From positions 1 through 57,877 of the forward strand of contig JAQWYM010000034.1 in the NCBI GenBank assembly GCA_029253965.1: a DNA stretch of 57,877 bases, in the 5' to 3' direction. Shown here piece by piece: positions 21,126 through 38,120 of this stretch (the first letter of the stretch is position 1; each line of letters begins with the position of its first letter). The translations under genes and the position numbers were made by a program. The stretch is from Gammaproteobacteria bacterium. Lineage in GTDB: Bacteria; Pseudomonadota; Gammaproteobacteria; UBA4575. Below the pieces are notes generated by a model that was given only the letters and a program-made list of their open reading frames with translations, was not told where the DNA came from and did not search any database.

Positions 21126-22127
21126 CTAAATACTAATGTTCTCATGCTTCAATAAATGCGCTAAAGCATCTTCAAGAATCGCACGTGATTGAGCTGTTGT
21201 TGCATGTAAGAAAGCATGCATTCTAGCGTCATCATCATCTTTATTCTGACATTCAGCACTGTAGATTTCGAAGGCAACTAAGTTTTTAATTAGATCCGAT
21301 ATATGTTGTGGGCATTCACATTGAATTGATGTTGGGAAACGTGAAAGGCTCTCTAATTGCTTAGAACTATAGCGTCTCATCGGTATCGACTCTTCCATGT
21401 AAACGGTGCCAACTGCAGTGGTTGTAACAAATTTGGAATCACCACCGACACGGTCAACACAGAGACGAGCTAGTTCATAGACGTCTATTGAAGAACGAAT
21501 AGCACTTACTTGTGGACTCTGTAATTTATTAATTTCTGACTGAGATCCAAAGCCATATAATGCGACGACATGCCATGCGCCTGTGCGCTTGAGAATCTGT
21601 GATATATATTCACGCGTGTCTTCATTGATTGTTGGCCGCTCAATAATAACAACATGTACGGGGTGATCATCTTTAGTTTCTGACCACTCATCCAAGCCGA
21701 TGGGTTGGTCAACAACCTCAATGCCTTCAAAATCTGACATTCCGTCTAAAACACGCAGTGGAAACTCTTCACCAAGAAGTAAAACCCTACATTTTTGTGT
21801 GCGACTGAATTCACGTGGTTGGGCATTATCAATATCCTCCCATTTCATACTATTAGCCGCTTGATTAGAATTTTCCCATTTCACCTTAAGTTCTGATAGC
21901 GATAGATGCGCTATGGTACCAATAGAGTTACCGACATCGACTAGATTTTTCAGCATGAACAGCTTAGATAAATTATCAGCATCATAGACACGATCTCCAG
22001 ACTCAGAGCGTTTTGGAACAACGGCTTTATATCGTCGTTCCCACGCACGTAATGTTTCCGTACCAATACCGGTAATTTTGGAAACTGCACCAATTTTGTA
22101 TTCGTCGTTAGCAATTTGAGTCTGCAT
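21126..22127 (-). CDS. MerR-family transcriptional regulator with a ~230-aa C-terminal domain of unknown function
   Basis: N-terminal MerR HTH (YKIGAVSKITGIGTETLRAWERRY). The rest is unassigned. Confidence 0.75.
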   Translation of the reverse strand: MQTQIANDEYKIGAVSKITGIGTETLRAWERRYKAVVPKRSESGDRVYDADNLSKLFMLKNLVDVGNSIGTIAHLSLSELKVKWENSNQAANSMKWEDIDNAQPREFSRTQKCRVLLLGEEFPLRVLDGMSDFEGIEVVDQPIGLDEWSETKDDHPVHVVIIERPTINEDTREYISQILKRTGAWHVVALYGFGSQSEINKLQSPQVSAIRSSIDVYELARLCVDRVGGDSKFVTTTAVGTVYMEESIPMRRYSSKQLESLSRFPTSIQCECPQHISDLIKNLVAFEIYSAECQNKDDDDARMHAFLHATTAQSRAILEDALAHLLKHENISI

Positions 22128-22720
22128 AATAATCTCTATGTGTATAAAGTAAGTTTAGATATATTACTAACAAAATAGCACTCTGTACATAATGTTTATA
22201 TCTTACCCACTATAAATACCCTATACACCCCTATAGCGTCCATGCCCAGTCCATACAACATCTTGTTCAGTAATTGGCTTTGCACAGCCGTAGATAACGG
22301 GTAATTACTCATAGCAGCCCGGTGTAATCAACAAGCCGCACTTAAGATGTACGGCATTAAAATAATTCACGATGACAACAAAATGTGCGCAGCCTAGTGT
22401 AATTTAAACAGCAAAAACTCAGTCGAATAGAATTAAAATCTTAAATCCAAGCTGATTAAGTCACCTTATTGGTGTCGCTGCCTTATCATTAATCAACGAA
22501 AGTCGGCTATATGTGGGCCTGATAGTACTGAATCAGTCTTAACACCACTGCTAGGTGCCTGATTTAAATAATCTAGAGAGGAGCTAGAGAATGCTTAAGC
22601 AAGAAACCTGCTTATTAAGTGATTTACAAAATAGAGAAGAAGGCTATTTAATGCCATACCACTCATCTAAGACAAAGGCATCCCTACTCAAAACACGTTT
22701 TTGAAAATCACACAGAGAGT

Positions 22721-22996
22721 TCAATCTAAAGGCTTAGGATAATTAGAGAGTAATAATGGGGCGATATCTCCCTCCTCCGCTAACATCTGCAGTTCATTCT
22801 CAAGAATATACAGGGCCCAGCCAGGACAGGGACGGGCACTCACTAAGCTAGGTGAAGCACTCCATGACTGCACTGTTCGTGTAGAAAGATGATCTCCCGT
22901 TACCGTTGCAATTAAGGTAGCCACTTTATTAGAGGGCTTACCATATAAAATCATCAATTTTTTAAGTCTAATCTTATTGTAATCAATCAACTCCAT
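22721..22996 (-). CDS. small putative HTH DNA-binding protein
   Basis: 91-aa ORF. The stretch KVATLIATVTGDHLSTRTVQSW looks like an XRE/Cro-type helix-turn-helix. No firm family assignment. Confidence 0.35.
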   Translation of the reverse strand: MELIDYNKIRLKKLMILYGKPSNKVATLIATVTGDHLSTRTVQSWSASPSLVSARPCPGWALYILENELQMLAEEGDIAPLLLSNYPKPLD

Positions 22997-23170
22997 AATA
23001 AATTAACCTCTTAGCCGGTCAATCCGATCCTTACCGAACCCCTTCTTTAATGCATCCTCAATATTTTGATGGGATTGAGATTCAATTGGCCGATATAATT
23101 TAGATGATACAGTAGACTCTAATTAATTGTATTATTATACTATAACGTTAATTAATCAACGCACAAAGTG

Positions 23171-24082
23171 CTATCGAACCGCCCCTGCCCGCCAAAGTCG
23201 CCATAGTATTGGCCAGCAATAAATGAGAGGATGCTTGCGATGTCGGTCATTTATTTCAACGCGGACGCCACTGTGTCGCTCTATTTTCCAAGCCAAGTAA
23301 TCAACGCCATTTTCGAAGGTGGTTGCTGCTTTAAGTAAGCGAGCTATAGACAGTAACTTGCCCCAAACTGAGCGTATAACCCAATTCAATGCGGTCCACC
23401 CTGATGCCTTAGAAGAGTGACTAAAGCCTGCACTTAACAAGTGATTGAAGGCGTCGTCATAATGCCTTTTATTCGCATCATAAATGAGGCTTGCACGCGC
23501 CTTGCTCTCAGCACGCAGTTCAGCAGCATAGGTCTTTTGTAAAGCCTCTACCCAGAACTCTTGCGCTGTTGGCAGACCATCGAATAAGCCAATAGCCTGG
23601 GTGTATATCGTCGTGATTGAGTTAAGTTGGGCTTGAACAACCTGACGCCGCGCCTGCTCATCAAACGCATAAATTAATGCAAACGGTTGCGCAAAACGCG
23701 CCCAGAAATAAGAGTGATAAGCACGCACTGAGGTTTGTCGCAGTAGATCTTTTTCTGATAGCACTGCATACTTGGCCTGTACTTTTAGACCGTTTATTTC
23801 TACTGTTTGAAAGTAGACATTTGGCGCTAAAAAAGCATTAAGCAAGGCATGCGTTTTCGAGTCATACGCTTCCTTATAGTCATCGACAACCGCATAGAAA
23901 TCCAACATCGCAGCGTTATATTGTCGGCTACGCAGGCATGAGCCATAAAACATAACTGTACGCAATGATGAACCAAACTTGGCTTTTAGTGCGTTAGTAA
24001 ATGCCATCAAGGTTTCATCACTCACCGTAATGAGCTGCTTATCAAGATGTTGAAACAATGCTGTTGTATTAACGTTATTCAT
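23171..24082 (-). CDS. Tam41/Mmp37-like nucleotidyltransferase (candidate lipid-phosphate cytidylyltransferase)
   Basis: 303 aa. The pattern FYGS...AMLDFYAVVDD...NVYFQ...AKYAVLSEKDL parallels the N-terminal NTase domain of mitochondrial CDP-DAG synthase Tam41/TAMM41 as I recall it. ATGA overlap with the upstream kinase gene. Confidence 0.45.
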   Translation of the reverse strand: MNNVNTTALFQHLDKQLITVSDETLMAFTNALKAKFGSSLRTVMFYGSCLRSRQYNAAMLDFYAVVDDYKEAYDSKTHALLNAFLAPNVYFQTVEINGLKVQAKYAVLSEKDLLRQTSVRAYHSYFWARFAQPFALIYAFDEQARRQVVQAQLNSITTIYTQAIGLFDGLPTAQEFWVEALQKTYAAELRAESKARASLIYDANKRHYDDAFNHLLSAGFSHSSKASGWTALNWVIRSVWGKLLSIARLLKAATTFENGVDYLAWKIERHSGVRVEINDRHRKHPLIYCWPILWRLWRAGAVR

Positions 24083-25047
24083 CGCGTCAGGAAATATGCC
24101 GTTGTATTAGCATCAAGCCAAACTTCACTTGTTTTATCTTCGCCACCAAACAACTCACCATCAAGAGTAAAGCCACCTGCAATCATCAATCTAACTGTAG
24201 CTAGCTTGAGACTGATATAACCCTGATCATTAACACGCGGAGCACGGCCCCATAATATGCGCAGGCTGGCTAGTACTGATTTTTTTGAATTCACTTTGAT
24301 CAAGGTTAGTGCTAATTCATTTTCAGACTGCGCCTTACCCCAGAACGGATAAATCCCACCAATAAGGCGCTCTAAAGTAGAGGCAAGAATCACTGAAAAC
24401 TCATCCTTGGCGATTAGCTGCTGACCATGATGTACTTCTGCCATCGCAGATTGGATCAGTTTGCCACGGGTTACCCAATCTAAAAGATAGCGAAGCACGG
24501 CTAATGTTGGCCCCAACTCACCGGCAATACCGCGTGAATGAATATTCTGTCGACAATATAAAATACCTGAGTAGACAGCTCCGGCACCAAAAAACATGCC
24601 ACAGACTTCTCTGTTCTCCGCGGGAATACGCATCCGCAAGATAGGTCTTGAGCATTCCTTAACTTTATTTTTCTCACCTGAGACATAGGCCAAAAGGTCG
24701 TTAAATAGCTCGTTCAAACCGGCATTGAAGCCGATATCACCAAAGGTCATATTGGTTGTACCAGCTCGTACCACAGCAAGTTTTGGCGCATAACCTTGTG
24801 CGGCGGATCGTGACAAAAAGCTCAGCACCTTATGTAAGGTGCCATCACCCCCATTAATAATGATGACTGGAACCGCTGCAGACTGACAGGCCTCTAAGAC
24901 ACCATCCATATCACTTTCTGCACGCGTCACCTCATGCTGAACCTGTGGATAAGCTGCAACGACATCACAAAAACGTTGGAACTGACCACGCTTATTCAAG
25001 CCACTATTAGGATTGCTAATGGCTGTGATTAAAATAGCAGAGTCCAT
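24079..25047 (-). CDS. diacylglycerol-kinase-family lipid kinase (candidate ceramide kinase)
   Basis: 322 aa with the DAGK catalytic-domain motif IIINGGDGTLHKV. Confidence 0.75.
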   Translation of the reverse strand: MDSAILITAISNPNSGLNKRGQFQRFCDVVAAYPQVQHEVTRAESDMDGVLEACQSAAVPVIIINGGDGTLHKVLSFLSRSAAQGYAPKLAVVRAGTTNMTFGDIGFNAGLNELFNDLLAYVSGEKNKVKECSRPILRMRIPAENREVCGMFFGAGAVYSGILYCRQNIHSRGIAGELGPTLAVLRYLLDWVTRGKLIQSAMAEVHHGQQLIAKDEFSVILASTLERLIGGIYPFWGKAQSENELALTLIKVNSKKSVLASLRILWGRAPRVNDQGYISLKLATVRLMIAGGFTLDGELFGGEDKTSEVWLDANTTAYFLTR

Positions 25048-25053
25048 ATTAGT

Positions 25054-26370
25054 TTATCTTCTGTTTGAGCGTTTAATCAGCGAGGCAATAGTAGTGTCTG
25101 CTTGGCGCCCAGTAAACCATTGAATCACCCGTGAAGACTTTGCTTGTTCTGCATCGACGTCTTCAATCCATGGACGTAAACGACCGATAAATAAACGATA
25201 GAAAGAGGCATGTATAAAGCGTAGCGCGAGCAAAATAGTTGATAAGGCACTCCACAGTACAACCCATATAAAGCCAGCTTCAGCGTTCATCAAATAGAGC
25301 GCGATGCTCAGCAAGACTATGCAAGGATTACGTCTTGCTGTGAATAAGCGATGATACGCATCGATTGGCTTCCAGCAGAAGATCTCAATATTATCAAATG
25401 AGATCTGGAATAAGCCCTCAAATAATCGTCCACCAACATAGGCCAGTAACATCACTATAAAAAGGTGATCGAGCATCATAACCCGCCCAAAAATATCGAG
25501 CTCATTCAGCCCTAAACCCATCGCCCAACACCAGTACCATATGGGTGGATGTATAATATCTAAACCATGATCCATCCAATGCCCAAGCTTACTTGACTGC
25601 AAGCTCACGCGTGCCAACTTACCATCTACGGTATCTAAGAAAGTCATCAGCCATGCCGCTAATAGACCAAGTGCAAACTGCCCTTGGTAAAAGAGTACAC
25701 CGGCAATAACAGTCAGTATCCAGCCAAAAGATGTCACCTTGTTGGGACTGATATTCATCTCCACACAACGTCTTACCACCCATCTCGCAGGAGCTGGCCA
25801 TAACCATTTAGTGACAAAATCAGTAATGCCTTTATAAGATTTATCATAGAGGTAGTTTTCTATCTGCACTTGATCCTCTGCCACCACCTTAACCACATGC
25901 GATAGATTGAATTTGCGCAATTTAGGGTCATAGCCCCCGGTTAATGCTTCTGGCGAAAATAGTGAGACCGCCTCCCCCGCATCCTGAGCAATTTCTTGCG
26001 CTGAGTCTTCCTTCTCAATTCGAGCTAATAAGGCTGGTGCTGCGGCTGCTGAAGTCCAGGCGGCAACCACCTTGTCATCACTTGAATCAGTCAGCAGAGT
26101 GCTGCTGCTAGTATGTGTTTGTGAGATAATTTTAGACAGCAAGTAAGCGTCATATAGATAGTCTAGACGTAATATTAAAACGGCATCATCCGGCTGCAAC
26201 AATCTAAGATCATCTAGCTGCTCGAAAGCGCCTAATTTCCGCAGATTTTTTGCGATTCGCTGTTCTGGACTGACTCCCCAAAGAGGCACGTCACATTGTT
26301 TAACAAGATGGTAGTACATATCTGCTTTATTTTTGTTATGGTCAAGACAATCAAGAGACTGAATCGACAC
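25054..26370 (-). CDS. CDP-alcohol phosphatidyltransferase with a ~190-aa N-terminal soluble extension
   Basis: Exact D-x2-DG-x2-AR-x8-G-x3-D-x3-D signature (DTVDGKLARVSLQSSKLGHWMDHGLD) in a polytopic C-terminal half. The track start is a GTG. An ATG 17 codons downstream is an alternative start. Confidence 0.8.
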   Translation of the reverse strand: MSIQSLDCLDHNKNKADMYYHLVKQCDVPLWGVSPEQRIAKNLRKLGAFEQLDDLRLLQPDDAVLILRLDYLYDAYLLSKIISQTHTSSSTLLTDSSDDKVVAAWTSAAAAPALLARIEKEDSAQEIAQDAGEAVSLFSPEALTGGYDPKLRKFNLSHVVKVVAEDQVQIENYLYDKSYKGITDFVTKWLWPAPARWVVRRCVEMNISPNKVTSFGWILTVIAGVLFYQGQFALGLLAAWLMTFLDTVDGKLARVSLQSSKLGHWMDHGLDIIHPPIWYWCWAMGLGLNELDIFGRVMMLDHLFIVMLLAYVGGRLFEGLFQISFDNIEIFCWKPIDAYHRLFTARRNPCIVLLSIALYLMNAEAGFIWVVLWSALSTILLALRFIHASFYRLFIGRLRPWIEDVDAEQAKSSRVIQWFTGRQADTTIASLIKRSNRR

Positions 26371-26374
26371 TGAG

Positions 26375-27358
26375 ATGACTAATAATTCGAATCACGATAC
26401 CACTAAAAAAGGAGCGCATGCTAATGAGTCTTTCCGATTCGCGCAACTTTCAGACCCTCATCTTTCACACCTTAAAAATGCGTCAGCCTTAGAGCTCTTC
26501 AATAAGCGCATTCTGGGCTATTTATCATGGCTAAAAAGGCGTCGTAACTCGCATAAACGTGAAATTGCTGAAATTGCCATAGCGCAGTTAAAGCAGCAAC
26601 AAATTGACCATTATGTGGTCACTGGGGATCTTACCCATATCGGCCTAGAAGATGAATTCAAACAAGTTGCTAGCTGGTTAGAACAGATTTCTAGCGCTGA
26701 CAATGTCACTGTCATTCCAGGTAATCATGATCTCTATGTGAATACACGCTGGGAGCACTCTTTTCATCATTGGCAGCCATACATGCTCGGTGATGACATG
26801 ACTGAACCCGGTGAGGCCTTAGAACAAGATGCCTTAAATACATTGAATAATGTCTACCCACATGTCCGTATCCGTGGGCCTGTCGCCTTCATCAGCCTTT
26901 CCAGTGTCTTTGCTGCCCCTTGGTTTAGAGCAACAGGAAAGATCAGCTCCGCACAAATCAGTAAGCTCAAGATACTATTAAAAGACCCAAAGCTGGCTAG
27001 CTTATGCAAGGTGCTGTTGATTCATCATCCAGTCAGTAAGCATCATGTCAAAGCGCGCAAAGAATTAATTAACCAAGAAGAACTCATAGATGCCTTAATC
27101 GATACACCGGTTGAGTTAATCTTGCATGGCCATGCACATAGTCGTTTTCATGACCGCCTACAGATAGATGAAGAACGAAGTATTCCAGTTGTTGGAGCCG
27201 CCTCATGTAGTAGCGTCAGTCAGGCACAACCTTATCGTGCCCAATACCTAGTGTTTGAAGTGCGCCAGAGCGATAAACAATGGCATCTGTCTTACCAAGA
27301 CTTTGCCTATGATGCCAAGCAAGGTTTATTTGTTAACAGTAAGCGAACAGCACTCTAA
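26375..27358 (+). CDS. calcineurin-like metallophosphoesterase
   Basis: The motif series DPH, GDLTH, GNHD, HHP and GHAH appears in the canonical order. Confidence 0.8.
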   Translation: MTNNSNHDTTKKGAHANESFRFAQLSDPHLSHLKNASALELFNKRILGYLSWLKRRRNSHKREIAEIAIAQLKQQQIDHYVVTGDLTHIGLEDEFKQVASWLEQISSADNVTVIPGNHDLYVNTRWEHSFHHWQPYMLGDDMTEPGEALEQDALNTLNNVYPHVRIRGPVAFISLSSVFAAPWFRATGKISSAQISKLKILLKDPKLASLCKVLLIHHPVSKHHVKARKELINQEELIDALIDTPVELILHGHAHSRFHDRLQIDEERSIPVVGAASCSSVSQAQPYRAQYLVFEVRQSDKQWHLSYQDFAYDAKQGLFVNSKRTAL

Positions 27359-28431
27359 GTCCTAAGCTTGCGTAGGTATGTGAGTAATAGTAAAGCTAGA
27401 ATGGCAATCATACTAGGTGAGCCAGCCACAAAGACCGGCTGCCAAGCGAGTGCAAAGCCAAGATGGTTGATGATTTGGCTTAGGACATAAAAGCTCATCC
27501 CTGTGAGAACACCCAACGTAATCCTCTGCCCTGTACTGATCTGTCTTTGTGACCCAAAAACAAATGACAGCCCTAAGATGATCATAATACCTGCGGCTAG
27601 CGGTGACATCAGCTTCTGCCAAAACAAGACTTCAAACGGATAAGACTTTTCGCCTCGTTGCTTCAGGCCTTTGACAAATTTATTAAGATCAGTGATCGAT
27701 AGCGCCTGTGGGCTAGAGATAATCACACCCAACTGTTGAGCCGATAGAAAAGACTGCCATGGCAGCACATCATGATGCTTTTTCTGCATCCTCTCACCGA
27801 CTAGTATCCTTTCACTGACATTGTATAAAAGCCATTGATCTTGGCTTTGAATATCGGCATAGCTGGCAATCAAGTATCGTTGCAACTGATAATCAACAGT
27901 GAACTCAAAGATTTCAATATCATAAGGTTTACGACCTTCTTTAATATTTTTAATATGGATAAACTGGCCATCTAGTTGCGCCCAATATCCCGACTGACTG
28001 ACAAAATCACCTTGGCCAAGCGTAGCTAGGGTTTTTTCTATCTGCGCGTGTTGAAGTGTTTTAGGCACCACATACTCAGCGCTGATTAACATCAGACTCA
28101 TTATCAATGCTGCTGCGATCAAGACACTGCTGGTTATATTTCTCGGTGTCCCGCCTAAGCTTTGGATGGCAATCAATTCATGCTTCCCTGCTAAGGCACC
28201 CAAGACAACAACTGCGGCAATCAAACTGATTACCGGAGCAAAATCATTCAATATCATCGGTACATGAAGTAAGACGTAACGCAGTGACATACTCAAGTTA
28301 TAGTGACCTGTACCAATATCATCTAATTCTTCAATCAAGAGAATGATCGAAAATAGCCCAACAATAATGAGCGCGGTAATAACAAAGCCAAGGAGTACAT
28401 TACGCGCTAAATAGAGTCTCAAAATCCACAT
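27355..28431 (-). CDS. LptG-like permease (LptF/LptG, YjgP/YjgQ family)
   Basis: 358 aa. Three TM helices, a periplasmic beta-jellyroll-sized insert, then three more TM helices. Aligns loosely with E. coli LptG along its length. Confidence 0.7.
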   Translation of the reverse strand: MWILRLYLARNVLLGFVITALIIVGLFSIILLIEELDDIGTGHYNLSMSLRYVLLHVPMILNDFAPVISLIAAVVVLGALAGKHELIAIQSLGGTPRNITSSVLIAAALIMSLMLISAEYVVPKTLQHAQIEKTLATLGQGDFVSQSGYWAQLDGQFIHIKNIKEGRKPYDIEIFEFTVDYQLQRYLIASYADIQSQDQWLLYNVSERILVGERMQKKHHDVLPWQSFLSAQQLGVIISSPQALSITDLNKFVKGLKQRGEKSYPFEVLFWQKLMSPLAAGIMIILGLSFVFGSQRQISTGQRITLGVLTGMSFYVLSQIINHLGFALAWQPVFVAGSPSMIAILALLLLTYLRKLRT

Positions 28432-28434
28432 AAT

Positions 28435-29481
28435 CTAAGCCTTCCTATAGCCACTAAGCGCTGTGATTACAGCCAATACCATGACACTCAGCCAAAGCCC
28501 CGGCAGCCTGGAAATTAGACTTTGTTCAATCCACGTCATGAGCACCAGACTTCCAGCATGCACTAACAAGAAAAGAGACAAGCCTAAAACTAAGATGCCA
28601 TAACGACCTCTGCGCGGTGAGGTTTTAGCTAAAAATATGGCTAATAAAGCCAGCAAAAAGGTTTTAGCCACCATCGTTAAACGCCACTGCAACTCAGCGA
28701 TATCCTTCGCATTATCACTTTTCCAGAGCTGTAGGGTTGATGTCGCTTTACGTTTATAGCCCAATGGTTCACGTTGCTTGATATCGGGATGCAAGATCAT
28801 CTCTTGGAAATTAATCACCTGATCATTGCCGTCATCAGAGAGCCTATAGGCGCTACCCTCTGTAAACTTCAGGCTGCCATTATTACCGTCGCTGGATGAT
28901 AGCTGTAGCCCTTCTCTAGCAATGATAATCTGACTGTTATCGTCAGCACCTTCATACATGAAGATATCTTCTTTTACCTCACCTGAACCTAGCTTTTTAG
29001 TGAAGTAAACGCGACCCGTGTCTTCACTTTCATAGAAATAGCCACCTTCTAGACGCTCAAAATCATAGCTCTCAGTCGCTTCATACTGAACTTCATACCG
29101 CAGCTGATTGGCCCATGGGCGCACCATCGTTGTCAGTATTGCGGTGATCATCGTCAACACAACAATCAGCGGTAAGAATGTTCTTATTAAGCCAGAAACG
29201 CCCATACCAGCGGCCTGCAATGCACTAATTTCCTGTTCGCTATAGAGCCTGCCTAAACCCATTAGCAGGGTAATAAATAAGGCCAGTGGGAGAAATAACT
29301 CAAATGAAGCGATGGTCTTAGCAAAGATCATCTGCGCTAACAACGCAGCTGGAATGAGGCTACTCATGGGGTCTGCAAGTAAGCTCAAGGCACTAAAGCT
29401 GACCATAAGCACTGATAGAATCAAGCTGATAGTAAGCAGTGGGCTTAAAATTTCTTTATTTAAATAAGCTCGGACAATCAA
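28435..29481 (-). CDS. LptF-like permease (LptF/LptG family)
   Basis: Same architecture as the LptG-like gene. Start placed at the TTG at 29481, giving MIVRAYLNKEIL (compare E. coli LptF MIIIRYLVRETL) with GAGAG upstream. The track ORF extends to 29553. Confidence 0.7.
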   Translation of the reverse strand: MIVRAYLNKEILSPLLTISLILSVLMVSFSALSLLADPMSSLIPAALLAQMIFAKTIASFELFLPLALFITLLMGLGRLYSEQEISALQAAGMGVSGLIRTFLPLIVVLTMITAILTTMVRPWANQLRYEVQYEATESYDFERLEGGYFYESEDTGRVYFTKKLGSGEVKEDIFMYEGADDNSQIIIAREGLQLSSSDGNNGSLKFTEGSAYRLSDDGNDQVINFQEMILHPDIKQREPLGYKRKATSTLQLWKSDNAKDIAELQWRLTMVAKTFLLALLAIFLAKTSPRRGRYGILVLGLSLFLLVHAGSLVLMTWIEQSLISRLPGLWLSVMVLAVITALSGYRKA

Positions 29482-29604
29482 GGTTAATCTCTCATTATCG
29501 CTGTTTCCAATCCAGCAACTTACATTCGTATTAGCGTCACTGACATGTAGCACGGCATAGGGCTTCAGGGTAGACTAACCCAGAACTTTAATTACATCAT
29601 TTCC

Positions 29605-30339
29605 ATGAAAGCTATCATCCTCAGCGCTGGGCAAGGACGTCGTCTTCTGCCGTATACCAAGTCTACCCCAAAATGCCTACTGGAATTAAGCCAAAAGCCT
29701 TTCATCCAATATCAGATTGATACGCTACTAGGTTTGGGTGTCGATGAGATAGTGGTCGTCGTTGGCTATGCCGCTACTGACGTTGAGCAGGTCTTACGAA
29801 AAAATTATGACTCTAGTCGAGTCCGCACGCTATACAACCCCTTTTATGAAGTTGCCGATAACCTCGCAAGCTGCTGGATGGCGCGTGAGGAATTACACGG
29901 TGAATTCATGATTTTAAATGGTGACACCCTGTTTGAAGCAGCCATCATTGAAAAACTCATCCGTGCCGATAATTATCCAATCACGCTAGCCAGTGATGAA
30001 AAGCCTGCTTATGACGATGATGATATGAAGATCAGCCATCATCAGGGGCGTATTCTCAGAATTGGTAAAAAGCTACCCTTAGAACAGGTCAATGCTGAAT
30101 CAATCGGCGCTATGAAATTTTCTAGCGAGGGTGCAACACTTTTTCGTGACCAAATCTGTCATGACATGCATCAGCCTGAAGCCTTAAGCCGTTGGTATTT
30201 ATCGGTGATTGATGAATTGGCTGCCAGTGGTAATGTCGGAACCATATCGATTCAGGGGCTAGACTGGACTGAACTAGATTTCGTACATGATCTAGAGCTC
30301 GCCAGAGCGATGGTAAGCAAATGGGCAGAGCAAGGCTAA
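29605..30339 (+). CDS. sugar/alcohol-phosphate nucleotidyltransferase (NTP_transferase family)
   Basis: N-terminal signature ILSAGQGRRLLP (GxGxRL). 244 aa, comparable to LicC / inositol-phosphate cytidylyltransferase-type enzymes. Confidence 0.75.
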   Translation: MKAIILSAGQGRRLLPYTKSTPKCLLELSQKPFIQYQIDTLLGLGVDEIVVVVGYAATDVEQVLRKNYDSSRVRTLYNPFYEVADNLASCWMAREELHGEFMILNGDTLFEAAIIEKLIRADNYPITLASDEKPAYDDDDMKISHHQGRILRIGKKLPLEQVNAESIGAMKFSSEGATLFRDQICHDMHQPEALSRWYLSVIDELAASGNVGTISIQGLDWTELDFVHDLELARAMVSKWAEQG

Positions 30340-30349
30340 GGCTAGGCGC

Positions 30350-31123
30350 TTAAAGATAGCGCTGCAGCAGCTCATAATCGGCAACGGAATCAACATCCAC
30401 CGAAATCTCTGGGGCGTCACGCACGATAATTTCTACATGTGCTGCGCTAAGCGTTGATAAATAGGCAGAAGCCTGTGCAAGTGTCATCTTGCCAAACTTA
30501 TACTTGATCAAGTTAATCATCCCTAATTTAGCAATAATCTGTAATGGATTTTTTCGCTTTTCTTCCATCTCTCGCCAGAAGTGCAAGGCCTCTTTACCGG
30601 CATGACTGCGCACCGCAAACAGGCTAGAAAAGCACAGTAAACGCTGCTCGAATGTGTAGGTTGTTTTACGAATGGTGGGTAGCTTTTTTATAATGGACTC
30701 ATGCGGTACTGCAGCCACCACAAAGTCTGCATCACTGTCATCGGCTGCCACACAGTATTCATCAATCGCCTGACTGGTAATAAACGGCACATCACAGGTT
30801 GCTATCAAGCAGGGGTAGCCTTGCCTATGTTGCAAGCCTTTGAGCGCACTTAGACTAGGGCCTTCAGCCTTAGCTAAATAATCAAACTGATACTGTTCGG
30901 CTAGTTCCTGAATACAGGCATGTGGCTGACTAACCTCACTATCCGGGCCAACAATCGTAATATGTCCGATATGCTCAGCTTCTACTAAAGCCGCTATAAC
31001 CCGCGATAGCTGTGTCTGCCCAGAAAAGCGAACGGCAGCTTTGCATGTAACCCCAGCAGCTTGTAACAAGGGATCATTCGGTCCACGGTCTCCTGCGAGA
31101 ACGACTGCATTCCATTTATTCAT
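30350..31123 (-). CDS. MobA-like nucleotidyltransferase family protein
   Basis: 257 aa. NAVVLAGDRG N-terminus and TCDVPF motif, as in MobA/CobY-like NTP transferases. 8-nt overlap with the upstream GNAT-like gene. Confidence 0.55.
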   Translation of the reverse strand: MNKWNAVVLAGDRGPNDPLLQAAGVTCKAAVRFSGQTQLSRVIAALVEAEHIGHITIVGPDSEVSQPHACIQELAEQYQFDYLAKAEGPSLSALKGLQHRQGYPCLIATCDVPFITSQAIDEYCVAADDSDADFVVAAVPHESIIKKLPTIRKTTYTFEQRLLCFSSLFAVRSHAGKEALHFWREMEEKRKNPLQIIAKLGMINLIKYKFGKMTLAQASAYLSTLSAAHVEIIVRDAPEISVDVDSVADYELLQRYL

Positions 31124-32264
31124 CCGGCTTACTCATTAGCTTCTTTTCAAAAACACGGTAGGTTTTATAGCGCTTACCCCCCGTAGATTGCATTACCTTA
31201 TTTAAGCGCTTGTTATCCTCTAAGACCCAAGACATCTCTACCGTATTATAGCCCTTTGCCACAGTCGACAGATGCAGTTCATGCAGCAGCATAAAGGTTA
31301 GCGTTGAACCCATCAGCGAGTTCTGAAACTCTTGCCGTATCCCCATCAAAGCGATACGCCCAGACTTTGCTGGTGCAAAGCGCAGCCGATAAAGCAGCTT
31401 TAAGAAACCAAAGGGAAAGAGCTTACCTTTCAAGTCTCCTATTAGGCTGTTGATGTTAGGAATGTAAGCAACAAAGGCGGCCGCCTTGCCTTCAACTTCA
31501 GCAAATTTGATAAAATCCGTGGGCACAATTTGCATCATCTCTTTACCGATCAAAAGAAATTCTTCCTCAGTAAAAGGGATAAAGCCCCAATTCTTCCGCC
31601 ACGCATCATTAAATAGATCCAGCATTATAAGTAGGTCACGCTTATAGTGCTTACGGTCGAAATCACGCATCACACAGCGCCCTTTGTGTTGACTCAGAAT
31701 ACGTTGCATCGCTGCTGGGAAACTACGATCGGCATCACTCTTCCAAGCATACAAATCTTTAGCTTTTGCGTAACCATTAGCTTCATATAACGCCTGATAG
31801 TAAGGCATCGCATGACCCATCATTGGGAATGGCGGTGTATCAAAACCATCAATCAAACAGCCACTCTCTTGATTAATTGAAAGGCTAAATGGGCCTCGCA
31901 CCTGATCACAACCATTTTCTGATAACCACACTTCAGCTGCAGAAAATAAACATTTGGCAACTTCTACGCCATCAATACAATCAAAATTGCCGATAAAACC
32001 CATCCCTGGCATATCGTGCTGCCAAGCCAACTGATCAACCTGCGCACTGATGCGTCCAATATTCTGACCGTCACGCTTCAATAACCAAAAACGAGCTTTG
32101 GCATGCTTAAAGAAAGGATGTTTGGGGTGTAGTTGAGCTAGACGCTCGACAAGTAGAGGACTAACCCAGTTTGGATCGTCCCGCATGATTTCGGAGGGCA
32201 GTTTTACAAATTCTTTTTTACGTCGTCCATCAGTGTTATCAAACGACTCTAGTTCTATGCTCAA
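31116..32264 (-). CDS. GNAT-fold acyltransferase-like protein (candidate bacterial ceramide synthase)
   Basis: 382 aa. Belongs to a recognisable family (DPNWVSPL...GFIGNFDC...RGPFSLSINQESGCLIDGFDTPP) that is usually annotated GNAT N-acetyltransferase. Its cluster context is with spt/cerR. Confidence 0.45.
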   Translation of the reverse strand: MSIELESFDNTDGRRKKEFVKLPSEIMRDDPNWVSPLLVERLAQLHPKHPFFKHAKARFWLLKRDGQNIGRISAQVDQLAWQHDMPGMGFIGNFDCIDGVEVAKCLFSAAEVWLSENGCDQVRGPFSLSINQESGCLIDGFDTPPFPMMGHAMPYYQALYEANGYAKAKDLYAWKSDADRSFPAAMQRILSQHKGRCVMRDFDRKHYKRDLLIMLDLFNDAWRKNWGFIPFTEEEFLLIGKEMMQIVPTDFIKFAEVEGKAAAFVAYIPNINSLIGDLKGKLFPFGFLKLLYRLRFAPAKSGRIALMGIRQEFQNSLMGSTLTFMLLHELHLSTVAKGYNTVEMSWVLEDNKRLNKVMQSTGGKRYKTYRVFEKKLMSKPDE

Positions 32265-32297
32265 ATTATCTCTCCAAGATAGAGAGATATTGGATCT

Positions 32298-33017
32298 CTA
32301 CCGTTCTTCTTGAGCTTTGCTAATTTGCGCCACCCATGGATACTGACTGATCTCACTATCGGTATAACCCAGATTGAAGACCGTCTCACTTTTCTCGACA
32401 TTATTACCCTTATCGTAATGCGTCCTAAAGACTCTGTCCCAGAAAAAGTTAGTGATCCCATAATTACCCTTTTCATTACGGAAGTGATGCAGTAGATGTA
32501 ATCGCTTCATATTACGCAAGAATTGGCTTTTAGGCGTGTAATGTAGATGTTGGATACAATGACAGTATTCATAAAACATCGTCACTAAAATGCCAGACAC
32601 CGTGCACGCAACCGCACCATAGAAACCTGCAAGAACATAACCTAATGGAATACTAAAGGCTAACACTGTTGGCAGCGTTGTGTACAAAGCGCCAAACAAT
32701 ACGCGTAGATCATTCGGGTCACGATGATGATCGTAATGGATTCGTTTCCATACTTTGGCAAAACCTTCAAAACGATATAAAAAGCGGCTATGCAAAACGT
32801 AGCGATGTAATAAGTACCAAATCAATGGATAAAGGGCAGCTATCAGTAGCACGGGGGCTACTAGAGTCCAGCTAAAAGCATTATTCATGCCCAGCACTAA
32901 AAAGCCAGCCAATGCAATTAGTGCGTAAGCGACAATCGCAGGATACTGAATGTAAGAAACAGTCAGTTCACTTAGAGTCATATCTTGGAGGTGATGTTTT
33001 TTAGATAACCAGAACAT
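32298..33017 (-). CDS. fatty acid hydroxylase / sterol desaturase superfamily di-iron membrane enzyme
   Basis: Histidine boxes HRYVLH, HYDHHRD and HLLHHF. Start moved to the ATG at 33017, because the longer track ORF would overlap the divergent HIT gene. Confidence 0.8.
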   Translation of the reverse strand: MFWLSKKHHLQDMTLSELTVSYIQYPAIVAYALIALAGFLVLGMNNAFSWTLVAPVLLIAALYPLIWYLLHRYVLHSRFLYRFEGFAKVWKRIHYDHHRDPNDLRVLFGALYTTLPTVLAFSIPLGYVLAGFYGAVACTVSGILVTMFYEYCHCIQHLHYTPKSQFLRNMKRLHLLHHFRNEKGNYGITNFFWDRVFRTHYDKGNNVEKSETVFNLGYTDSEISQYPWVAQISKAQEER

Positions 33018-33151
33018 GTGCGTTTGTTTCTCAAGAGTGCTAAATTTTAATCTATAAGAGTATAAGCACCTAGTCGACAAGGTGAAACACCTAATAATGT
33101 GCTTGTACAACAAAAACCCAATGATTTTCAAGTAACCGGTTAGGAATATTT

Positions 33152-33598
33152 GTGAACACGACCCTTGCGAAGTTCGAGTACCCACAATCTGAAATAAAGC
33201 ATTTTGAGCACTGGAGTGTTTTGTTACGACCTAAACAAGTCACCTTAGGCTCTTTAATTCTGATCGAACGAAGTGATGCGACTGCTTTTTCGGAATTAAC
33301 AGACGCTGCAATGACTGAACTCACGACTGTCATCCGTGACATTGAAGTCTGCCTCAAGTCAGCTTTCGACTACGATAAAATTAATTATTTAATGTTGATG
33401 ATGGTCGACCCGCATGTCCATTTCCATATCATTCCTCGTTACAGCTCAAAGCGGAGTTATCAGAATAACGTATTATCTGACCGTTCATGGCCAAAACCTG
33501 CTGATTTAACGGATGATCTTTTATTATCTAGAGAGGAAATGCAGGGTTTAGCTGTTTTTATAAGCGAAAACTGGCCAAAACCTGTGAAAAGAGGCTAA
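33152..33598 (+). CDS. HIT-family nucleotide hydrolase/transferase
   Basis: 148 aa with a GTG start. Histidine-triad motif HVHFHIIPR. Confidence 0.65.
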   Translation: MNTTLAKFEYPQSEIKHFEHWSVLLRPKQVTLGSLILIERSDATAFSELTDAAMTELTTVIRDIEVCLKSAFDYDKINYLMLMMVDPHVHFHIIPRYSSKRSYQNNVLSDRSWPKPADLTDDLLLSREEMQGLAVFISENWPKPVKRG

Positions 33599-33873
33599 AA
33601 GTCCACTTAGTTACGGTAACTTCCCTATATTTCCAGTATAATATGTTTTTATACGTAGTTGTAATCTGAGCTGATTATAGATAACTCACGATATGCGCAA
33701 ACCTCAACTTTTGACGCTTCGAGAATTTTTGTCTATAAAATTAATCATGCTAGACTTAGACAATTAAAAATTGACTGAGTAAATTTTTAATAGTTACGGA
33801 TACAGCGCTGGCTAAGATGCTAAGCGCCTACACACAGATTTAGAACCGAATTGAATACGGACCTCAACAAATT

Positions 33874-35646
33874 ATGACCGTAAAGGCCACACCGACTCAG
33901 AACTCGCTAGCACTCCATACTGACCTCTTTGACAACCTTGCTTCCGCTTTAGATTATGCAGCTCAAGGCGAGACTGGCGCCAATTTTTACGGCAGCCGCG
34001 CTCAGCTCATCGACAGCATCAGTTATAAACGTCTGGCGACAGAATCAAAACAATTAGCGCAAAAATTAATTGCACTCGACTTTGTCGCTGGTGATCGTGT
34101 TGTTATTATTGCTGAGACTAACGCTAATTTCATGCGTGGTTTCTTTGCTTGTCAGTATGCTGGGCTGATTCCTATCCCAGTACCTGTGCCGATTCAATTA
34201 GGTAGCCGTGCCGCTTACGTGCGTAAAACACGCGACCTCTTAATTAGTGCACATGCCACCGCTGTATTCACCCCAGAGACGGTTTTACCGATGGTGAATG
34301 AAGCATGCCAAGATATTGATATGAAATTTGTTGGTGATATCCAACAGTTCCATGAGCAGAGCTTTGATGACTCCATTGAGTTACATCAAGCAGATCCAGA
34401 AGATACCGCATACATCCAGTTCACCTCGGGTAGCACACGCTTCCCTCGTGGTGTTGTGATTGAACAAAAAGCAGTGATGAGTAACTTACAACGCATCATT
34501 AACGATGGCATCAAGATCCGCCGCAGTGATCGACTGATGTCATGGCTTCCGTTCTACCATGACATGGGCCTGGTTGGACAGATGCTAGCACCTGTCGCAT
34601 CTCAAACTTCTGTTGATTATTTAGATACTCGTGATTTTGCTATGCGCCCAAGGCGTTGGCTGGAAATAATGTCACAGAATAAATCCACTATTTCATTCAG
34701 CCCACCCTTTGGCTATGAATTAGTCGAACGCAGGCTGCGTGAAGCTACTTGTAAGGATTATGATCTTAGTAACTGGCGTGTTGCTGGTATTGGTGCTGAA
34801 ACAATTCGCCCTGAACCCATGTTGCGCTTTGCAAAAATTCTATCCAACTGTGGCTTCGATGCAAAAGCATTCTTACCTTGCTACGGCATGGCTGAGTGCA
34901 CACTTGCTGTTAGTTTTGCTGACGTTGATAAACCATTGAATATAATAACGGTTGATGGTGACAAGTTAGCAGAAGAAAATTTGGTAGTTATGGCTGACCC
35001 AGCAGAGAGCACCCGTATTGCTCAATTCATTGATTGCGGCAAAGCGCTACCAGAACACACCATGGAAATTCGTGATCATGAAGGTAACGCACTTGCTGAT
35101 AGCAGCATCGGTGTAATTCATGTTTCAGGCCCTAGCGTTATGTCGCACTACTTTGATAACAGTGAAGAGACTGCACGCACATTACAAAATGGCTGGCTAA
35201 ATACTGGTGATATCGGTTTCATGATCGATGGTAGTGTCTTTATTACAGGGCGAGAAAAAGATCTTATTATTGTAAATGGCCGAAATATTTGGCCTCAAGA
35301 CATCGAAGCTATAGCCGAACAACAGCCAGAAATAAGAACTGGCGATGCACTAGCATTTTCTGCACCCAACTTTGATGGCAACACCACAGTTGTCGTTGTA
35401 GTGCAGTGCCGAGATCGAAATGAAGATAATCGCATCGACCTCATCTCACGTATAGAAACAGCGGTCATAAACGGTGTTGGCGTACGTTGTTTTGTTAAGC
35501 TAGTTGCACCGCACACCCTACCGCGAACCTCTTCAGGCAAATTATCGCGTTCAGCAGCACGTCGTGATTACATGGAACAAAATGGTATTAGTGAAGGTTA
35601 TCTTGCTGAGACTGATAACAACAGCACCGTCAAATCAGCGATCTAA
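33874..35646 (+). CDS. fatty acyl-AMP ligase / acyl-ACP synthetase
   Basis: 590 aa. AMP-binding motifs YIQFTSGSTRFPRGV, WLPFYHDMGL (FAAL-typical), TGD and the C-terminal SSGK. Confidence 0.85.
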   Translation: MTVKATPTQNSLALHTDLFDNLASALDYAAQGETGANFYGSRAQLIDSISYKRLATESKQLAQKLIALDFVAGDRVVIIAETNANFMRGFFACQYAGLIPIPVPVPIQLGSRAAYVRKTRDLLISAHATAVFTPETVLPMVNEACQDIDMKFVGDIQQFHEQSFDDSIELHQADPEDTAYIQFTSGSTRFPRGVVIEQKAVMSNLQRIINDGIKIRRSDRLMSWLPFYHDMGLVGQMLAPVASQTSVDYLDTRDFAMRPRRWLEIMSQNKSTISFSPPFGYELVERRLREATCKDYDLSNWRVAGIGAETIRPEPMLRFAKILSNCGFDAKAFLPCYGMAECTLAVSFADVDKPLNIITVDGDKLAEENLVVMADPAESTRIAQFIDCGKALPEHTMEIRDHEGNALADSSIGVIHVSGPSVMSHYFDNSEETARTLQNGWLNTGDIGFMIDGSVFITGREKDLIIVNGRNIWPQDIEAIAEQQPEIRTGDALAFSAPNFDGNTTVVVVVQCRDRNEDNRIDLISRIETAVINGVGVRCFVKLVAPHTLPRTSSGKLSRSAARRDYMEQNGISEGYLAETDNNSTVKSAI

Positions 35647-35688
35647 TCTTCTGATTAGATCAGAGCTAATAGTCTAATAAGGCCTATT

Positions 35689-36630
35689 GTGAGCACAGCA
35701 GTCACCTCAAATAAGACTGTTGCTCTAACTGGGGCTAGCGGATTTGTCGGTCAATCACTCTTAAAAAAACTAATTGCATCAGGGCATAAAGTTCGTGTCC
35801 TTGTGCGCAACCCAGATACTTTCAAACAGCCCAGACTTCAAACCAGCGATCAGTTGGAAGTCATCCAGGGCAACTTAAAGCCAGGCCCACATCTAGGCCA
35901 ATTACTGCAGGGTGTAGAGGCCTTAATACACTGTGCTGGTCGCGTACGTGGGCAGTGCTATAGTGAATTTGAGGAAGATAATGTTCACGGTACAATGGCA
36001 CTCATTGATGCCTGTAAGCAGTCTCCAGCGAGCATTCATTTTATTCAGATATCCTCTCTAGCGAGTCGTCAACCCCAGCTGTCGCATTATTCAAAAAGCA
36101 AATATGAGGCCGAGCAATATCTGCAAAAAAACCACCTTGGCCGATGGAGCATTATCAGACCCCCCGCTATTTATGGTGGTGATGAACAAGAAATGAGACC
36201 ACTATTTGATTGGATGCAGAGAGGCCTGTTATGGCTGCCCTGTAATGCAAATAATCGCTTTTCATTAATCCATATCAATGACCTAGCAGAACTCATAGTT
36301 AGCCATAGCTTAGAGCAGCTCAGTCTGCATAAGATTATTGAGCCAGATGATGGTCATGAGAATGGTTATTCTTGGTATGAAATTCATACTATTGGCAGTT
36401 CTGTATTTAAGCGTAAAATTCATTTACTAGCCCTGCCTCCACTATTGCTTGAAACCGCCGCTAGAGTTAATGTGGTAATCTGTCGTTTATTAGGTAAAAG
36501 CCCTATGCTGACGCCAGAAAAGCTCTCTGAACTGAGGTTTCCCAACTGGGTTGCAGCAGCAGAACTGGCCGCAGAGAACTGGATTGCAGTGATACCCTTG
36601 AATAAGGGCATCCTCTCCATATACAAGTGA
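35689..36630 (+). CDS. NAD(P)-dependent epimerase/dehydratase-family reductase (candidate ceramide reductase CerR)
   Basis: GTG start. Rossmann motif TGASGFVG and catalytic YSKSK (YxxxK). Sits between the FAAL and ACP-spt genes, as in the Caulobacter module. Confidence 0.7.
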   Translation: MSTAVTSNKTVALTGASGFVGQSLLKKLIASGHKVRVLVRNPDTFKQPRLQTSDQLEVIQGNLKPGPHLGQLLQGVEALIHCAGRVRGQCYSEFEEDNVHGTMALIDACKQSPASIHFIQISSLASRQPQLSHYSKSKYEAEQYLQKNHLGRWSIIRPPAIYGGDEQEMRPLFDWMQRGLLWLPCNANNRFSLIHINDLAELIVSHSLEQLSLHKIIEPDDGHENGYSWYEIHTIGSSVFKRKIHLLALPPLLLETAARVNVVICRLLGKSPMLTPEKLSELRFPNWVAAAELAAENWIAVIPLNKGILSIYK

Positions 36631-36663
36631 TATACAGCCAAAGAAATAATTGAAGAGAAACAC

Positions 36664-36915
36664 ATGCCCTCAGCCGAAAATAAAACACTAGCCGCCGTGA
36701 TTGAGATCCTGAGTCCTTTTGCCCCTGAAAATATTACAGTTACACCTCAGTCGACACTAATGAAAGACTTAGAACTTGATTCGGTTAAGGTCATGGAATT
36801 GATGATGAATCTTGAAGATCATTTTGATATATCAATTCCATTGAATGTTTTACCTGAGGTTAATGACATCCAAGATCTTGTTAATGAAATCGACAAAATC
36901 ATAGGCACAGTTTAG
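36664..36915 (+). CDS. dedicated acyl carrier protein
   Basis: 83 aa. LELDSVKVMEL contains the phosphopantetheine-serine motif (DSx). Confidence 0.85.
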   Translation: MPSAENKTLAAVIEILSPFAPENITVTPQSTLMKDLELDSVKVMELMMNLEDHFDISIPLNVLPEVNDIQDLVNEIDKIIGTV

Positions 36916-36917
36916 TT

Positions 36918-38120
36918 ATGAGTATCATGCAAAAGTTGAGTTCTATTGCTGAACAAACCTCCGGCTTAATCAACGAAAGTGGCAGCCCAATTGGCTCAAG
37001 AATTGAACGTGTTTATTCCGCCACAGAAGGTGACATTGGTGGCAGTAAAAAGATTCTCGTTGGAACTAATAATTATCTCGGTCTAACTTTTGATAAAGAG
37101 TGTATTGCGGCAGGACATGAGGCGGCATGCCAATACGGAACCGGTACAACCGGATCACGCATGGCCAACGGCTCTTATGCTGAGCATCTAGCCTTAGAAA
37201 GTGACTTGGCTGAATTCTATGGCGTTGAGCATTGCATCGTCTTTTCAACCGGTTATGTTGCCAATCTTGGCATGATCTGTTCATTAGTTGGCCCAGAGAA
37301 CACTATTTTTCTAGATGAGCATTGTCATGCCTCTATCTATGATGGCTGTAAGCTCAGTGGCGCTACCATCATTCATTTTCGACATAATAATGCCGCTGAT
37401 CTCGACAAGCGCCTGCGTCGTCTAGGGGATAATAGTGCTAACGCATTAATCATCACTGAAGGCCTCTACAGCATGCTTGGTGACAAGGCTGCCCTCCGTG
37501 AGATTGTTGAAGTTAAGAACAAATATGATGCCTTGCTTATGCTCGATGAGGCGCATTCACTAGGCGTTTTAGGCGCCACCGGCAGAGGCCTCGCTGAAGA
37601 GCTTGGCGTTGAAGATGACATTGATTTCATCACCGGTACTTTTAGTAAGAGTCTAGCGGGCCTTGGTGGCTTCTGTGTCAGCCGTCATTCTCAACTAGAA
37701 GCGGTTCGCTTCTCAAGCCGTCCTTATGTCTTCACGGCCTCACCATCACCGGCGACTATAGGCTCCGTTCGTGCAGCCCTACGCGTCATGCAAGCACGCC
37801 CCGAATTACAAAAGAAGTTATGGGACAACGCTACATTTTTGTACCATGGCTTAAAGGCCATGGGCTTCGAATTAGGCCCAGAAATTGGACCCGTAATAGC
37901 GGTTGATGCCGGAGAAAAAGAGAACGCCCTATTCATGTGGCAAGCCTTATTTGACCAAGGTGTTTACGTCAATGTGGTGTTTCCACCAGCAACTCCTAAC
38001 AGCAGCTGTTTACTACGTTGCAGTGTTAGCGCTGCGCATAGCCGTGAGCAGATGCAAGCTGTGCTCGATGCCTTCACTCAATTCAAACAACTTCAGTCCG
38101 TTACTGCAGCTCAGGCATAA
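36918..38120 (+). CDS. spt: alpha-oxoamine synthase, serine palmitoyltransferase type
   Basis: 400 aa. NNYLGL and GTGTTGSRMANG motifs, and the PLP-lysine motif GTFSKSLAGLGGF, which resembles Sphingomonas Spt rather than BioF or Kbl. 2-nt gap after the ACP gene. Confidence 0.75.
   Translation: MSIMQKLSSIAEQTSGLINESGSPIGSRIERVYSATEGDIGGSKKILVGTNNYLGLTFDKECIAAGHEAACQYGTGTTGSRMANGSYAEHLALESDLAEFYGVEHCIVFSTGYVANLGMICSLVGPENTIFLDEHCHASIYDGCKLSGATIIHFRHNNAADLDKRLRRLGDNSANALIITEGLYSMLGDKAALREIVEVKNKYDALLMLDEAHSLGVLGATGRGLAEELGVEDDIDFITGTFSKSLAGLGGFCVSRHSQLEAVRFSSRPYVFTASPSPATIGSVRAALRVMQARPELQKKLWDNATFLYHGLKAMGFELGPEIGPVIAVDAGEKENALFMWQALFDQGVYVNVVFPPATPNSSCLLRCSVSAAHSREQMQAVLDAFTQFKQLQSVTAAQA

Follow-up and report, generated by a model that had tools for sequence, protein, structure and literature searches.

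How ceramide might be given a phosphorylated head group is the question raised by three tightly packed genes on the minus strand of contig JAQWYM010000034.1 (assembly GCA_029253965.1), a 57,877-nucleotide stretch of gammaproteobacterial DNA (lineage UBA4575) referred to hereafter as the window. The genes encode, in the order in which they would be transcribed, a cytidine diphosphate (CDP)-alcohol phosphotransferase, a lipid kinase of the diacylglycerol kinase (DAGK) family and a 303-residue protein reminiscent of the CDP-diacylglycerol synthase Tam41. An initial annotation, made from the DNA letters, had read them as successive steps of a CDP-ceramide pathway. From domain content, gene order and context, we consider it probable that the trio is a gammaproteobacterial operon of the cpgA-cpgB-cpgC type, that it serves a complete sphingolipid cluster as head-group module, and that it makes an anionic phosphosphingolipid of the kind represented by the ceramide phosphoglycerate (CPG) and ceramide diphosphoglycerate (CPG2) of Caulobacter crescentus.

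The gene trio and its Caulobacter model

In C. crescentus, CCNA_01217-01219 (CC_1159-1161, cpgA-cpgB-cpgC) convert ceramide to CPG and CPG2 (Zik et al, 2022, PMC9393093; Olea-Ozuna et al, 2024, PMC11324152) and sit in a published 17-gene cluster, CC_1152-CC_1168. CpgA carries a PgsA/PF01066 domain, CpgB is a DAGK-family ceramide kinase (shown biochemically) and CpgC, for which no conserved domain was given at first report, was later assigned an InterPro Tam41/Mmp37 domain and has homologues among the alpha-, beta-, gamma- and deltaproteobacteria. The window genes share one strand and the same order of domain types (PF01066 transferase, DAGK-family kinase, Tam41-domain protein); one ATGA (24079-24082) holds both the stop of the kinase and the start of the 303-residue frame, and the TAA stop of the transferase is followed after 6 nucleotides by the kinase ATG, such that the three minus-strand frames, their overlap and their gap all stand as first annotated. 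They lie within or beside the bacterial ceramide core (spt, acpR, cerR, aasR and bcerS, the last by position alone), and the accessory genes for a second phosphoglycerate and for export (CpgD-like, MobA-like, HIT, phosphoesterase and LptF/G paralogues) are all present. The ceramide cluster noted beside the trio at the outset is likewise real, its serine palmitoyltransferase (Spt) scoring above the family cut-off. The accompanying statement that CPG is made in Caulobacter by other enzymes does not hold; by domain content, gene order and neighbours the set is the same.

Homologues of the transferase are 408-425 residues long and begin at the equivalent of M18; the ATG at 26319 (giving 421 residues) is therefore the probable true start, in place of the GTG at 26370. 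The gap to the divergent phosphoesterase gene (26319-26375) amounts to ~55 nucleotides with the ATG start and 4 with the GTG start, so short that a promoter region common to both genes would have to be very compact or be located in coding sequence. Promoter-like sites in 22000-27500 are at chance level (14 against 12.5 expected), and terminator-like sites are mildly enriched (9 against 4.4, sd 2.4), from which we draw no conclusion. Just downstream of the operon lie a gene for a MerR-family regulator bearing a long extension at its C terminus (21126-22127, minus strand) and a 91-codon open reading frame (ORF) that matches no family (22721-22996, minus strand); the 80 related loci described below contain no counterpart of either.

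A scan of one genome per species gave 595 relatives of the 303-residue protein, from which the best 80 loci were kept; these span Gamma-, Beta- and Alphaproteobacteria (Kiloniellaceae and others), Nitrospirales and Desulfobacterales. The kinase gene lies directly upstream of the CpgC-like gene in 70 of the 80, and wherever all three genes are present the trio is colinear within 3.5 kb (41 of 41 loci). Given this colinearity and the thousands of homologues of the 303-residue protein, conservation of the trio is not chance. Two Nitrosomonas-type loci homologous to the window genes (L077 and L050) connect the window to published orthologue tables, in which Neut_1100-1106 are listed as BLASTP orthologues of CC_1154-1161: their order, bCerS-like / (MobA-like) / LptF / LptG / transferase / kinase / CpgC-like, is that of Neut_1100-1106, with the gene resembling bacterial ceramide synthase (bCerS) at the position of Neut_1100, the CC_1154 orthologue. 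A homologue search from L077 returned proteins of N. stercoris, N. communis, N. oligotropha and Nitrosospira, and no Neut_1106 of N. eutropha.

The kinase matches PF00781 (DAGK_cat) with 45.5 bits against a cut-off of 23.6 (E 6.7e-12), bearing out the DAGK catalytic domain and GGDGT motif of the initial annotation. Published criteria for bacterial ceramide kinases are a GGDG ATP motif and no CxxxCxxC; the window protein has GGDGT and lacks the CxxxCxxC of eukaryotic ceramide kinases (CERK), and its nearest solved structure is, weakly, YegS. Family, motif and context together point to a CpgB-like lipid (ceramide) kinase. On two Nitrosomonas-like metagenome scaffolds (L081, 3941-5515; L082, 4941-6095) the kinase and CpgC-like frames read through without a stop codon (proteins P0266, P0309 and P0331), which suggests a natural fusion and is consistent with the two enzymes acting in consecutive steps. 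A 913-residue "triple fusion" ORF on L081 was rejected as an artefact of a 100-N scaffold gap, the kinase-CpgC read-through being the part that is real sequence.

The transferase scores 32.2 bits against PF01066 (cut-off 22), and every residue of its signature (D246-x2-D249-G250-x2-A253-R254-x8-G263-x3-D267-x3-D271) is invariant across 32 homologues, bearing out the CDP-alcohol phosphotransferase assignment made from that signature. It shares the polytopic helical membrane fold of solved PF01066 members. The best fold matches across its full length are two proteins of Archaeoglobus fulgidus, AF2299 (4o6m/4o6n; E 7.9e-10 over 384 columns, template modelling (TM) score on the target 0.71) and IPCT-DIPPS (4mnd; 452 columns), in which a cytosolic nucleotidyltransferase-like domain likewise precedes the CDP-alcohol phosphotransferase membrane domain; identity to them is 12-17%. 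Further entries among the top matches, of phosphatidylinositol phosphate (PIP) synthases, are crystallization chimeras carrying the AF2299 N-terminal domain and add little.

Comparison with these structures also amends the description of the N-terminal region as a soluble extension without a GxGxR motif. The loop is indeed absent; the extension (residues ~18-170; window 25860-26319, minus strand) is a folded domain and not a linker, similar to the nucleotidyltransferase-like cytosolic domain of AF2299 and IPCT-DIPPS. It keeps W31-G32...R38 and R68-x-D70 and has lost the canonical GxGxR loop. We rejected an active cytidylyltransferase here, given the degenerate loop and the insignificant fold matches to MobA and CofC alone (E 0.2-1.4); the domain could serve in nucleotide binding or docking. 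The donor of DIPPS is a soluble CDP-alcohol, as is proposed for the transferase, and this agrees with a Kennedy-type role in which phospho-X is moved from soluble CDP-X, an alternative that the initial annotation had offered and that fits the transferase better than its principal scheme. Unlike in the Archaeoglobus enzymes, the acceptor here would be a sphingolipid.

The 303-residue protein and Tam41

The 303-residue protein belongs to a family of at least 6911 proteins at E<=1e-3, and ocean metagenomes, those of Tara among them, contain proteins identical or nearly identical to it. Among 32 aligned homologues, 13 match PF09139 (Tam41_Mmp37; best E 1.1e-6), and these are 38-47% identical to the window protein. 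A profile built from 18 homologues (A3) matches Schizosaccharomyces pombe Tam41 (PDB 6ig2/6ig4) with E 4.3e-7, pairing the family motifs nvfY..KYaVxS, YlWgRFaqP and LsYaaeLR with gvyY..KYGVTS, YLAGRFQKP and LSYLGDIR of Tam41. The window protein presents K104-Y105-A106, W127-x-R129-F130-x-Q132-P133 and Y185...E188-L189-R190 at these positions, all (near-)invariant in its family; strictly invariant are the nucleotidyltransferase residues Y46-G47-S48 and D61, together with K104-Y105 and R129.

The AlphaFold2 model of the protein (predicted local distance difference test, pLDDT, 91) shows the fold of Tam41, a nucleotidyltransferase domain followed by a helical/winged-helix domain. In a Foldseek search of the PDB its top five matches are all Tam41 structures (6ig4, 7ecd and 6ig2; E 8.5e-8 to 8e-7, TM-score 0.45-0.55 over ~285 columns), with aminoglycoside nucleotidyltransferases next. 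The likeness to the mitochondrial CDP-diacylglycerol synthase Tam41/TAMM41 (6ig2 and 6ig4) and to Firmicutes Tam41 (7ecd) extends from domain architecture to the common motifs YGS, KY(A/G)VxS, Y(L/F)xxRFxxP and (L/T)Yxx(E/D)(L/I)R. The differences are in identity, which is just 12-20%, and in the probable lipid substrate, for which genomic context and Caulobacter genetics favour ceramide-1-phosphate (C1P) over phosphatidate. From fold and context, we propose that the protein is a cytidine triphosphate (CTP):C1P cytidylyltransferase.

Two possible gene modules and a proposed order of head-group steps

Neighbourhoods were compared for the 52 loci that have at least 8 kb upstream, counting genes within 10 kb. 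At least one ceramide-core gene is found there in 47 of the 52, a check that the initial annotation had called for, and the trio is thus not mostly a feature of genomes lacking spt; bCerS-like homologues are present in 43 loci and the metallophosphoesterase in 32. The transferase gene is absent nearby in 18 loci, in 15 of which the kinase and CpgC-like genes are nonetheless neighbours. It tracks the CpgD-like gene (both in 28 loci, neither in 16, discordant in 8; Fisher p 8e-7, not phylogeny-corrected), and the HIT gene and the in-cluster hydroxylase each accompany it in 20 of 34 loci, as opposed to 0 and 2, respectively, of the 18 loci without it. In plasmid pPNP1, kinase and CpgC-like genes lie side by side, and the transferase gene is divergent, beside a LicC-like gene that RefSeq names "phosphocholine cytidylyltransferase family protein". 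Published tables place the S. wittichii orthologues of CC_1153, 1159, 1157 and 1152 together (Swit_1306-1309), apart from Swit_3902/3903, and show the same split in H. neptunium. This pattern suggests two modules: the kinase and Tam41-like genes for the first head group, and the transferase, CpgD-like and HIT genes for the second. The HIT gene may belong to the latter, in that its orthologue adjoins those of CpgD and the transferase in published tables, although the Caulobacter paper treats CC_1157 as probably unrelated.

Plasmid pPNP1 (125 kb, IncP) of Pseudomonas sp. JS425 carries a complete sphingolipid/cpg-type cluster (L083; NZ_CP073662.1, 59820-86680), near which lie an IS5 transposase and a sul1-bearing class 1 integron; the CpgC-like gene is found on Roseomonas megaplasmids too. 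The pPNP1 setting points to horizontal mobility of the cluster.

Caulobacter genetics bear on the order of the steps. Deletion of cpgB leaves no C1P, CPG or CPG2; deletion of cpgC keeps or accumulates ceramide phosphate and loses CPG, in line with the sequence of kinase and then Tam41-like enzyme that the initial annotation had laid out. Loss of cpgA/CC_1159 leaves CPG intact and removes CPG2 alone (two independent studies), and CC_1160 by itself restores CPG in a CC_1159/1160 double mutant. For the second head group, CC_1152, a LicC-like nucleotidyltransferase now named CpgD (CTP:phosphoglycerate cytidylyltransferase), makes CDP-glycerate from CTP and phosphoglycerate in vitro (PMC12275187); the MobA/CofC-like nucleotidyltransferase CC_1153 is needed for CPG2, and the calcineurin-like phosphoesterase CC_1158 contributes to its formation. 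The CpgD-like protein of the window resembles CpgD (CCNA_01210): it is a 244-residue protein that shares with CpgD its Pfam families and its structural relatives, namely LicC (1jyk, the best solved-structure match, E 1.4e-18) and 4jd0, the relative reported for CpgD (PMC12275187), in a PDB copy that held no CpgD structures. It is a probable CDP-glycerate synthase.

In the pathway that we favour, the kinase would very probably carry out the first step, phosphorylation of ceramide, as established biochemically for CpgB. The Tam41-fold protein would then act on C1P, permitting attachment of glycerate; the most plausible chemistry, argued from fold and genetics and to our minds evenly poised, is that CTP and C1P give CDP-ceramide and pyrophosphate, whereupon a glycerate hydroxyl displaces cytidine monophosphate. 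In the third step, which we think rather likely, CDP-glycerate from the CpgD-like enzyme would serve the CDP-alcohol phosphotransferase in moving phosphoglycerate onto CPG to yield CPG2; here we draw on Caulobacter genetics and the in vitro synthesis of the donor, and infer the transfer itself. The transferase is more likely to use CDP-glycerate than CDP-ceramide, because it tracks the CpgD-like gene, its Caulobacter counterpart is not required for the first head group, and its gene is missing nearby in 15 loci that keep the kinase/Tam41-like pair. More tentatively, the Tam41-fold protein and CpgC may both be CTP:C1P cytidylyltransferases whose CDP-ceramide is consumed by an enzyme other than the CDP-alcohol transferase, with CpgC itself or another cluster gene as candidates.

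Nucleotide activation of ceramide is itself an older idea than the initial annotation allowed, in that an NDP (nucleoside diphosphate)-activated ceramide made by the Tam41-like CC_1161 was proposed in 2024; a preprint of May 2026 still gives the CpgC mechanism as not identified. Among the papers listed when we searched the literature for "CDP-ceramide" and the names of related enzymes, none mentions these terms, the listed matches being unrelated uses of "cPGC".

Several points weigh against this reading and temper it. To our knowledge, CDP-ceramide has never been detected in any organism. The 303-residue protein has no match of its own in Pfam (even at E<=1) or NCBIfam, and a 32-sequence profile that includes it (A1) finds no Tam41 among PDB sequences at E<=10, its sole match being a weak one to a minimal nucleotidyltransferase (E 0.018); the TM-scores of the Tam41 fold matches are moderate. 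Because the profile containing the window protein missed Tam41 in this sequence-only search, we regard the relationship as real but remote, and the Tam41 resemblance first annotated stands for the family profile and the fold and falls short for the window protein itself, which stays below Pfam thresholds. Orthology to the Caulobacter proteins is inferred from synteny, domain content and the chain through Nitrosomonas-type loci, not from direct alignment. The closest solved relative of the CpgD-like protein is a phosphocholine cytidylyltransferase, so a head group other than phosphoglycerate is conceivable. Finally, a gene absent from a neighbourhood may lie elsewhere in the genome, and the co-occurrence statistics ignore phylogeny.

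The scheme of the initial annotation, in which the kinase makes C1P, the Tam41-like enzyme turns it into CDP-ceramide and the transferase places ceramide phosphate on a soluble alcohol, parallels the route from phosphatidate through CDP-diacylglycerol to phosphatidylglycerol, phosphatidylinositol and phosphatidylserine. It would account for a single tight operon that stays colinear across 41 loci, and sits well with the Tam41 fold and with the nearest NCBIfam models of the transferase, which include PIP and archaetidylinositol-phosphate synthases that use a CDP-lipid donor. We nonetheless judge it unlikely: the transferase follows the gene for CDP-glycerate synthesis and not the Tam41-like gene, and the Caulobacter mutants lacking its counterpart still make CPG, both of which conflict with a CDP-alcohol transferase that consumes CDP-ceramide for the first head group. 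A change of head group on the same gene set, for example to phosphocholine or another phospho-alcohol from the CDP-X of the LicC-like cytidylyltransferase, appears improbable. The kinship to LicC, a CTP:phosphocholine cytidylyltransferase, and the RefSeq name of the pPNP1 homologue would suit it; CpgD likewise resembles LicC-type enzymes and 4jd0, yet uses phosphoglycerate, and the whole accessory gene set is that of a CPG2 cluster.

It is highly improbable, finally, that the 303-residue protein is a genuine CDP-diacylglycerol synthase of the Tam41 type with phosphatidate as its substrate, and the trio modifying glycerophospholipids. Its kinship to Tam41 in sequence and fold, the automatic UniRef name of several homologues ("Phosphatidate cytidylyltransferase") and the published supplementary observation that CpgB also phosphorylates diacylglycerol would all accommodate this, but the likeness is distant, the homologues almost always lie in ceramide clusters and mostly beside a ceramide kinase homologue, and without cpgC Caulobacter builds up ceramide phosphate and no longer has CPG. 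The reading as a cpgABC-type operon for CPG/CPG2-type lipids is the one that we carry forward.

The surrounding cluster and its known counterparts

The genes from the operon to spt are collected in the table. The bCerS-like protein has no match in Pfam or NCBIfam. The two LptF/G paralogues probably export the lipid; a 2026 preprint reports paralogues of lipopolysaccharide (LPS)-transport proteins in sphingolipid transport.

Table. Genes of the sphingolipid cluster in the window, with the basis of each assignment.
Feature	Coordinates	Strand	Basis and Caulobacter equivalent
Putative CpgC-like Tam41-fold nucleotidyltransferase, 303 aa	23171..24082	-	Family profile, fold; position of CC_1161
Putative CpgB-like lipid (ceramide) kinase, 322 aa	24079..25047	-	PF00781, GGDGT; adjoins CpgC-like gene
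Putative CpgA-like CDP-alcohol phosphotransferase with N-terminal soluble domain, 438 aa	25054..26370	-	PF01066, signature, fold
Calcineurin-like metallophosphoesterase	26375..27358	+	PF00149 E 1.8e-12; position of CC_1158; divergent from transferase
Two LptF/LptG paralogues	28435-29553, 27355-28431	-	PF03739 E 2e-49 and 2e-66; equivalents CC_1155, CC_1156
CpgD-like cytidylyltransferase, 244 aa	29605..30339	+	NTP_transf_3 and NTP_transferase matches
MobA/CofC-like nucleotidyltransferase	30350..31123	-	PF12804 E 4.9e-15; weak CofC and MobA NCBIfam matches; CC_1153-like
Probable bacterial ceramide synthase	31116..32264	-	Position alone (bCerS/CC_1154)
Fatty acid hydroxylase	32298..33185	-	PF04116 E 7.8e-21
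HIT-family protein	33152..33598	+	PF01230; CC_1157-like
AasR-like acyl-ACP synthetase	33874..35646	+	PF00501 E 3e-51; equivalent CC_1165
CerR-like NAD(P)-dependent reductase	35689..36630	+	NAD_binding and Epimerase matches; equivalent CC_1164
AcpR-like acyl carrier protein, 83 aa	36664..36915	+	DSVKV motif; equivalent CC_1163
Serine palmitoyltransferase (Spt)	36918..38120	+	NF047599 (NCBIfam equivalog) 582.7 bits, cut-off 500

Beyond spt (38151-47548) follow genes for a GT2 glycosyltransferase, a 270-residue ORF product without family match, a 2-oxoglutarate (2OG)-Fe(II) oxygenase, a 782-residue ELM1-like putative glycosyltransferase and an 862-residue GT2-GtrA-PMT_2 fusion. Several loci, and pPNP1 as well, have ELM1-like and hydroxylase genes with the cluster; these and the other genes after spt may serve further decoration of the lipid. 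A 593-residue double-GT2 glycosyltransferase (49972-51753, minus strand) lies in a stretch of G+C 0.32, as against ~0.44 for the window, which could mark a recent acquisition.

Already published are the gene set, the fact that other proteobacteria conserve it, and the proposal that the Tam41-domain protein makes an NDP-activated ceramide. What is new here is an uncharacterized cpg-type member in a marine gammaproteobacterium, backing for the Tam41 relationship from fold and profile, a broader spread of taxa that includes Nitrospirales and Desulfobacterales, and the two-module pattern of co-occurrence. CPG2-type anionic sphingolipids can be a partial substitute for LPS in the Caulobacter outer membrane and are a target of polymyxins; the full CPG2-type gene set now extends to a marine gammaproteobacterium, in a cluster that is widespread, even on an IncP plasmid. 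The two-module split can guide the biochemistry of CpgC and CpgA. CDP-ceramide, should it be real, would be the sphingolipid counterpart of CDP-diacylglycerol, and its existence is a testable question that the literature has already raised.

Set against the Caulobacter cluster, in which CC_1154 is bCerS, CC_1155/1156 are two LptF/G paralogues, CC_1157 is a HIT protein and CC_1162-1165 are Spt, AcpR, CerR and AasR, the window holds one gene of every CC_1152-1165 class within 23171-38120, and the phosphoesterase / transferase / kinase / CpgC-like stretch is in identical order. CC_1166-1168 (LptC2, flippase) are without counterpart among the window ORFs scanned, as reported for beta- and gammaproteobacterial versions; the phosphoesterase is present here, whereas the published beta and gamma examples had no CC_1158 orthologue. 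The host differs, being a marine gammaproteobacterium of ~44% GC, and spt is flanked by glycosyltransferase, 2OG-oxygenase and ELM1-like genes. A further difference is the PF04116 fatty-acid hydroxylase inside the window cluster, the sphingolipid acyl hydroxylase reported for Caulobacter being the product of an unlinked DesA-family gene.

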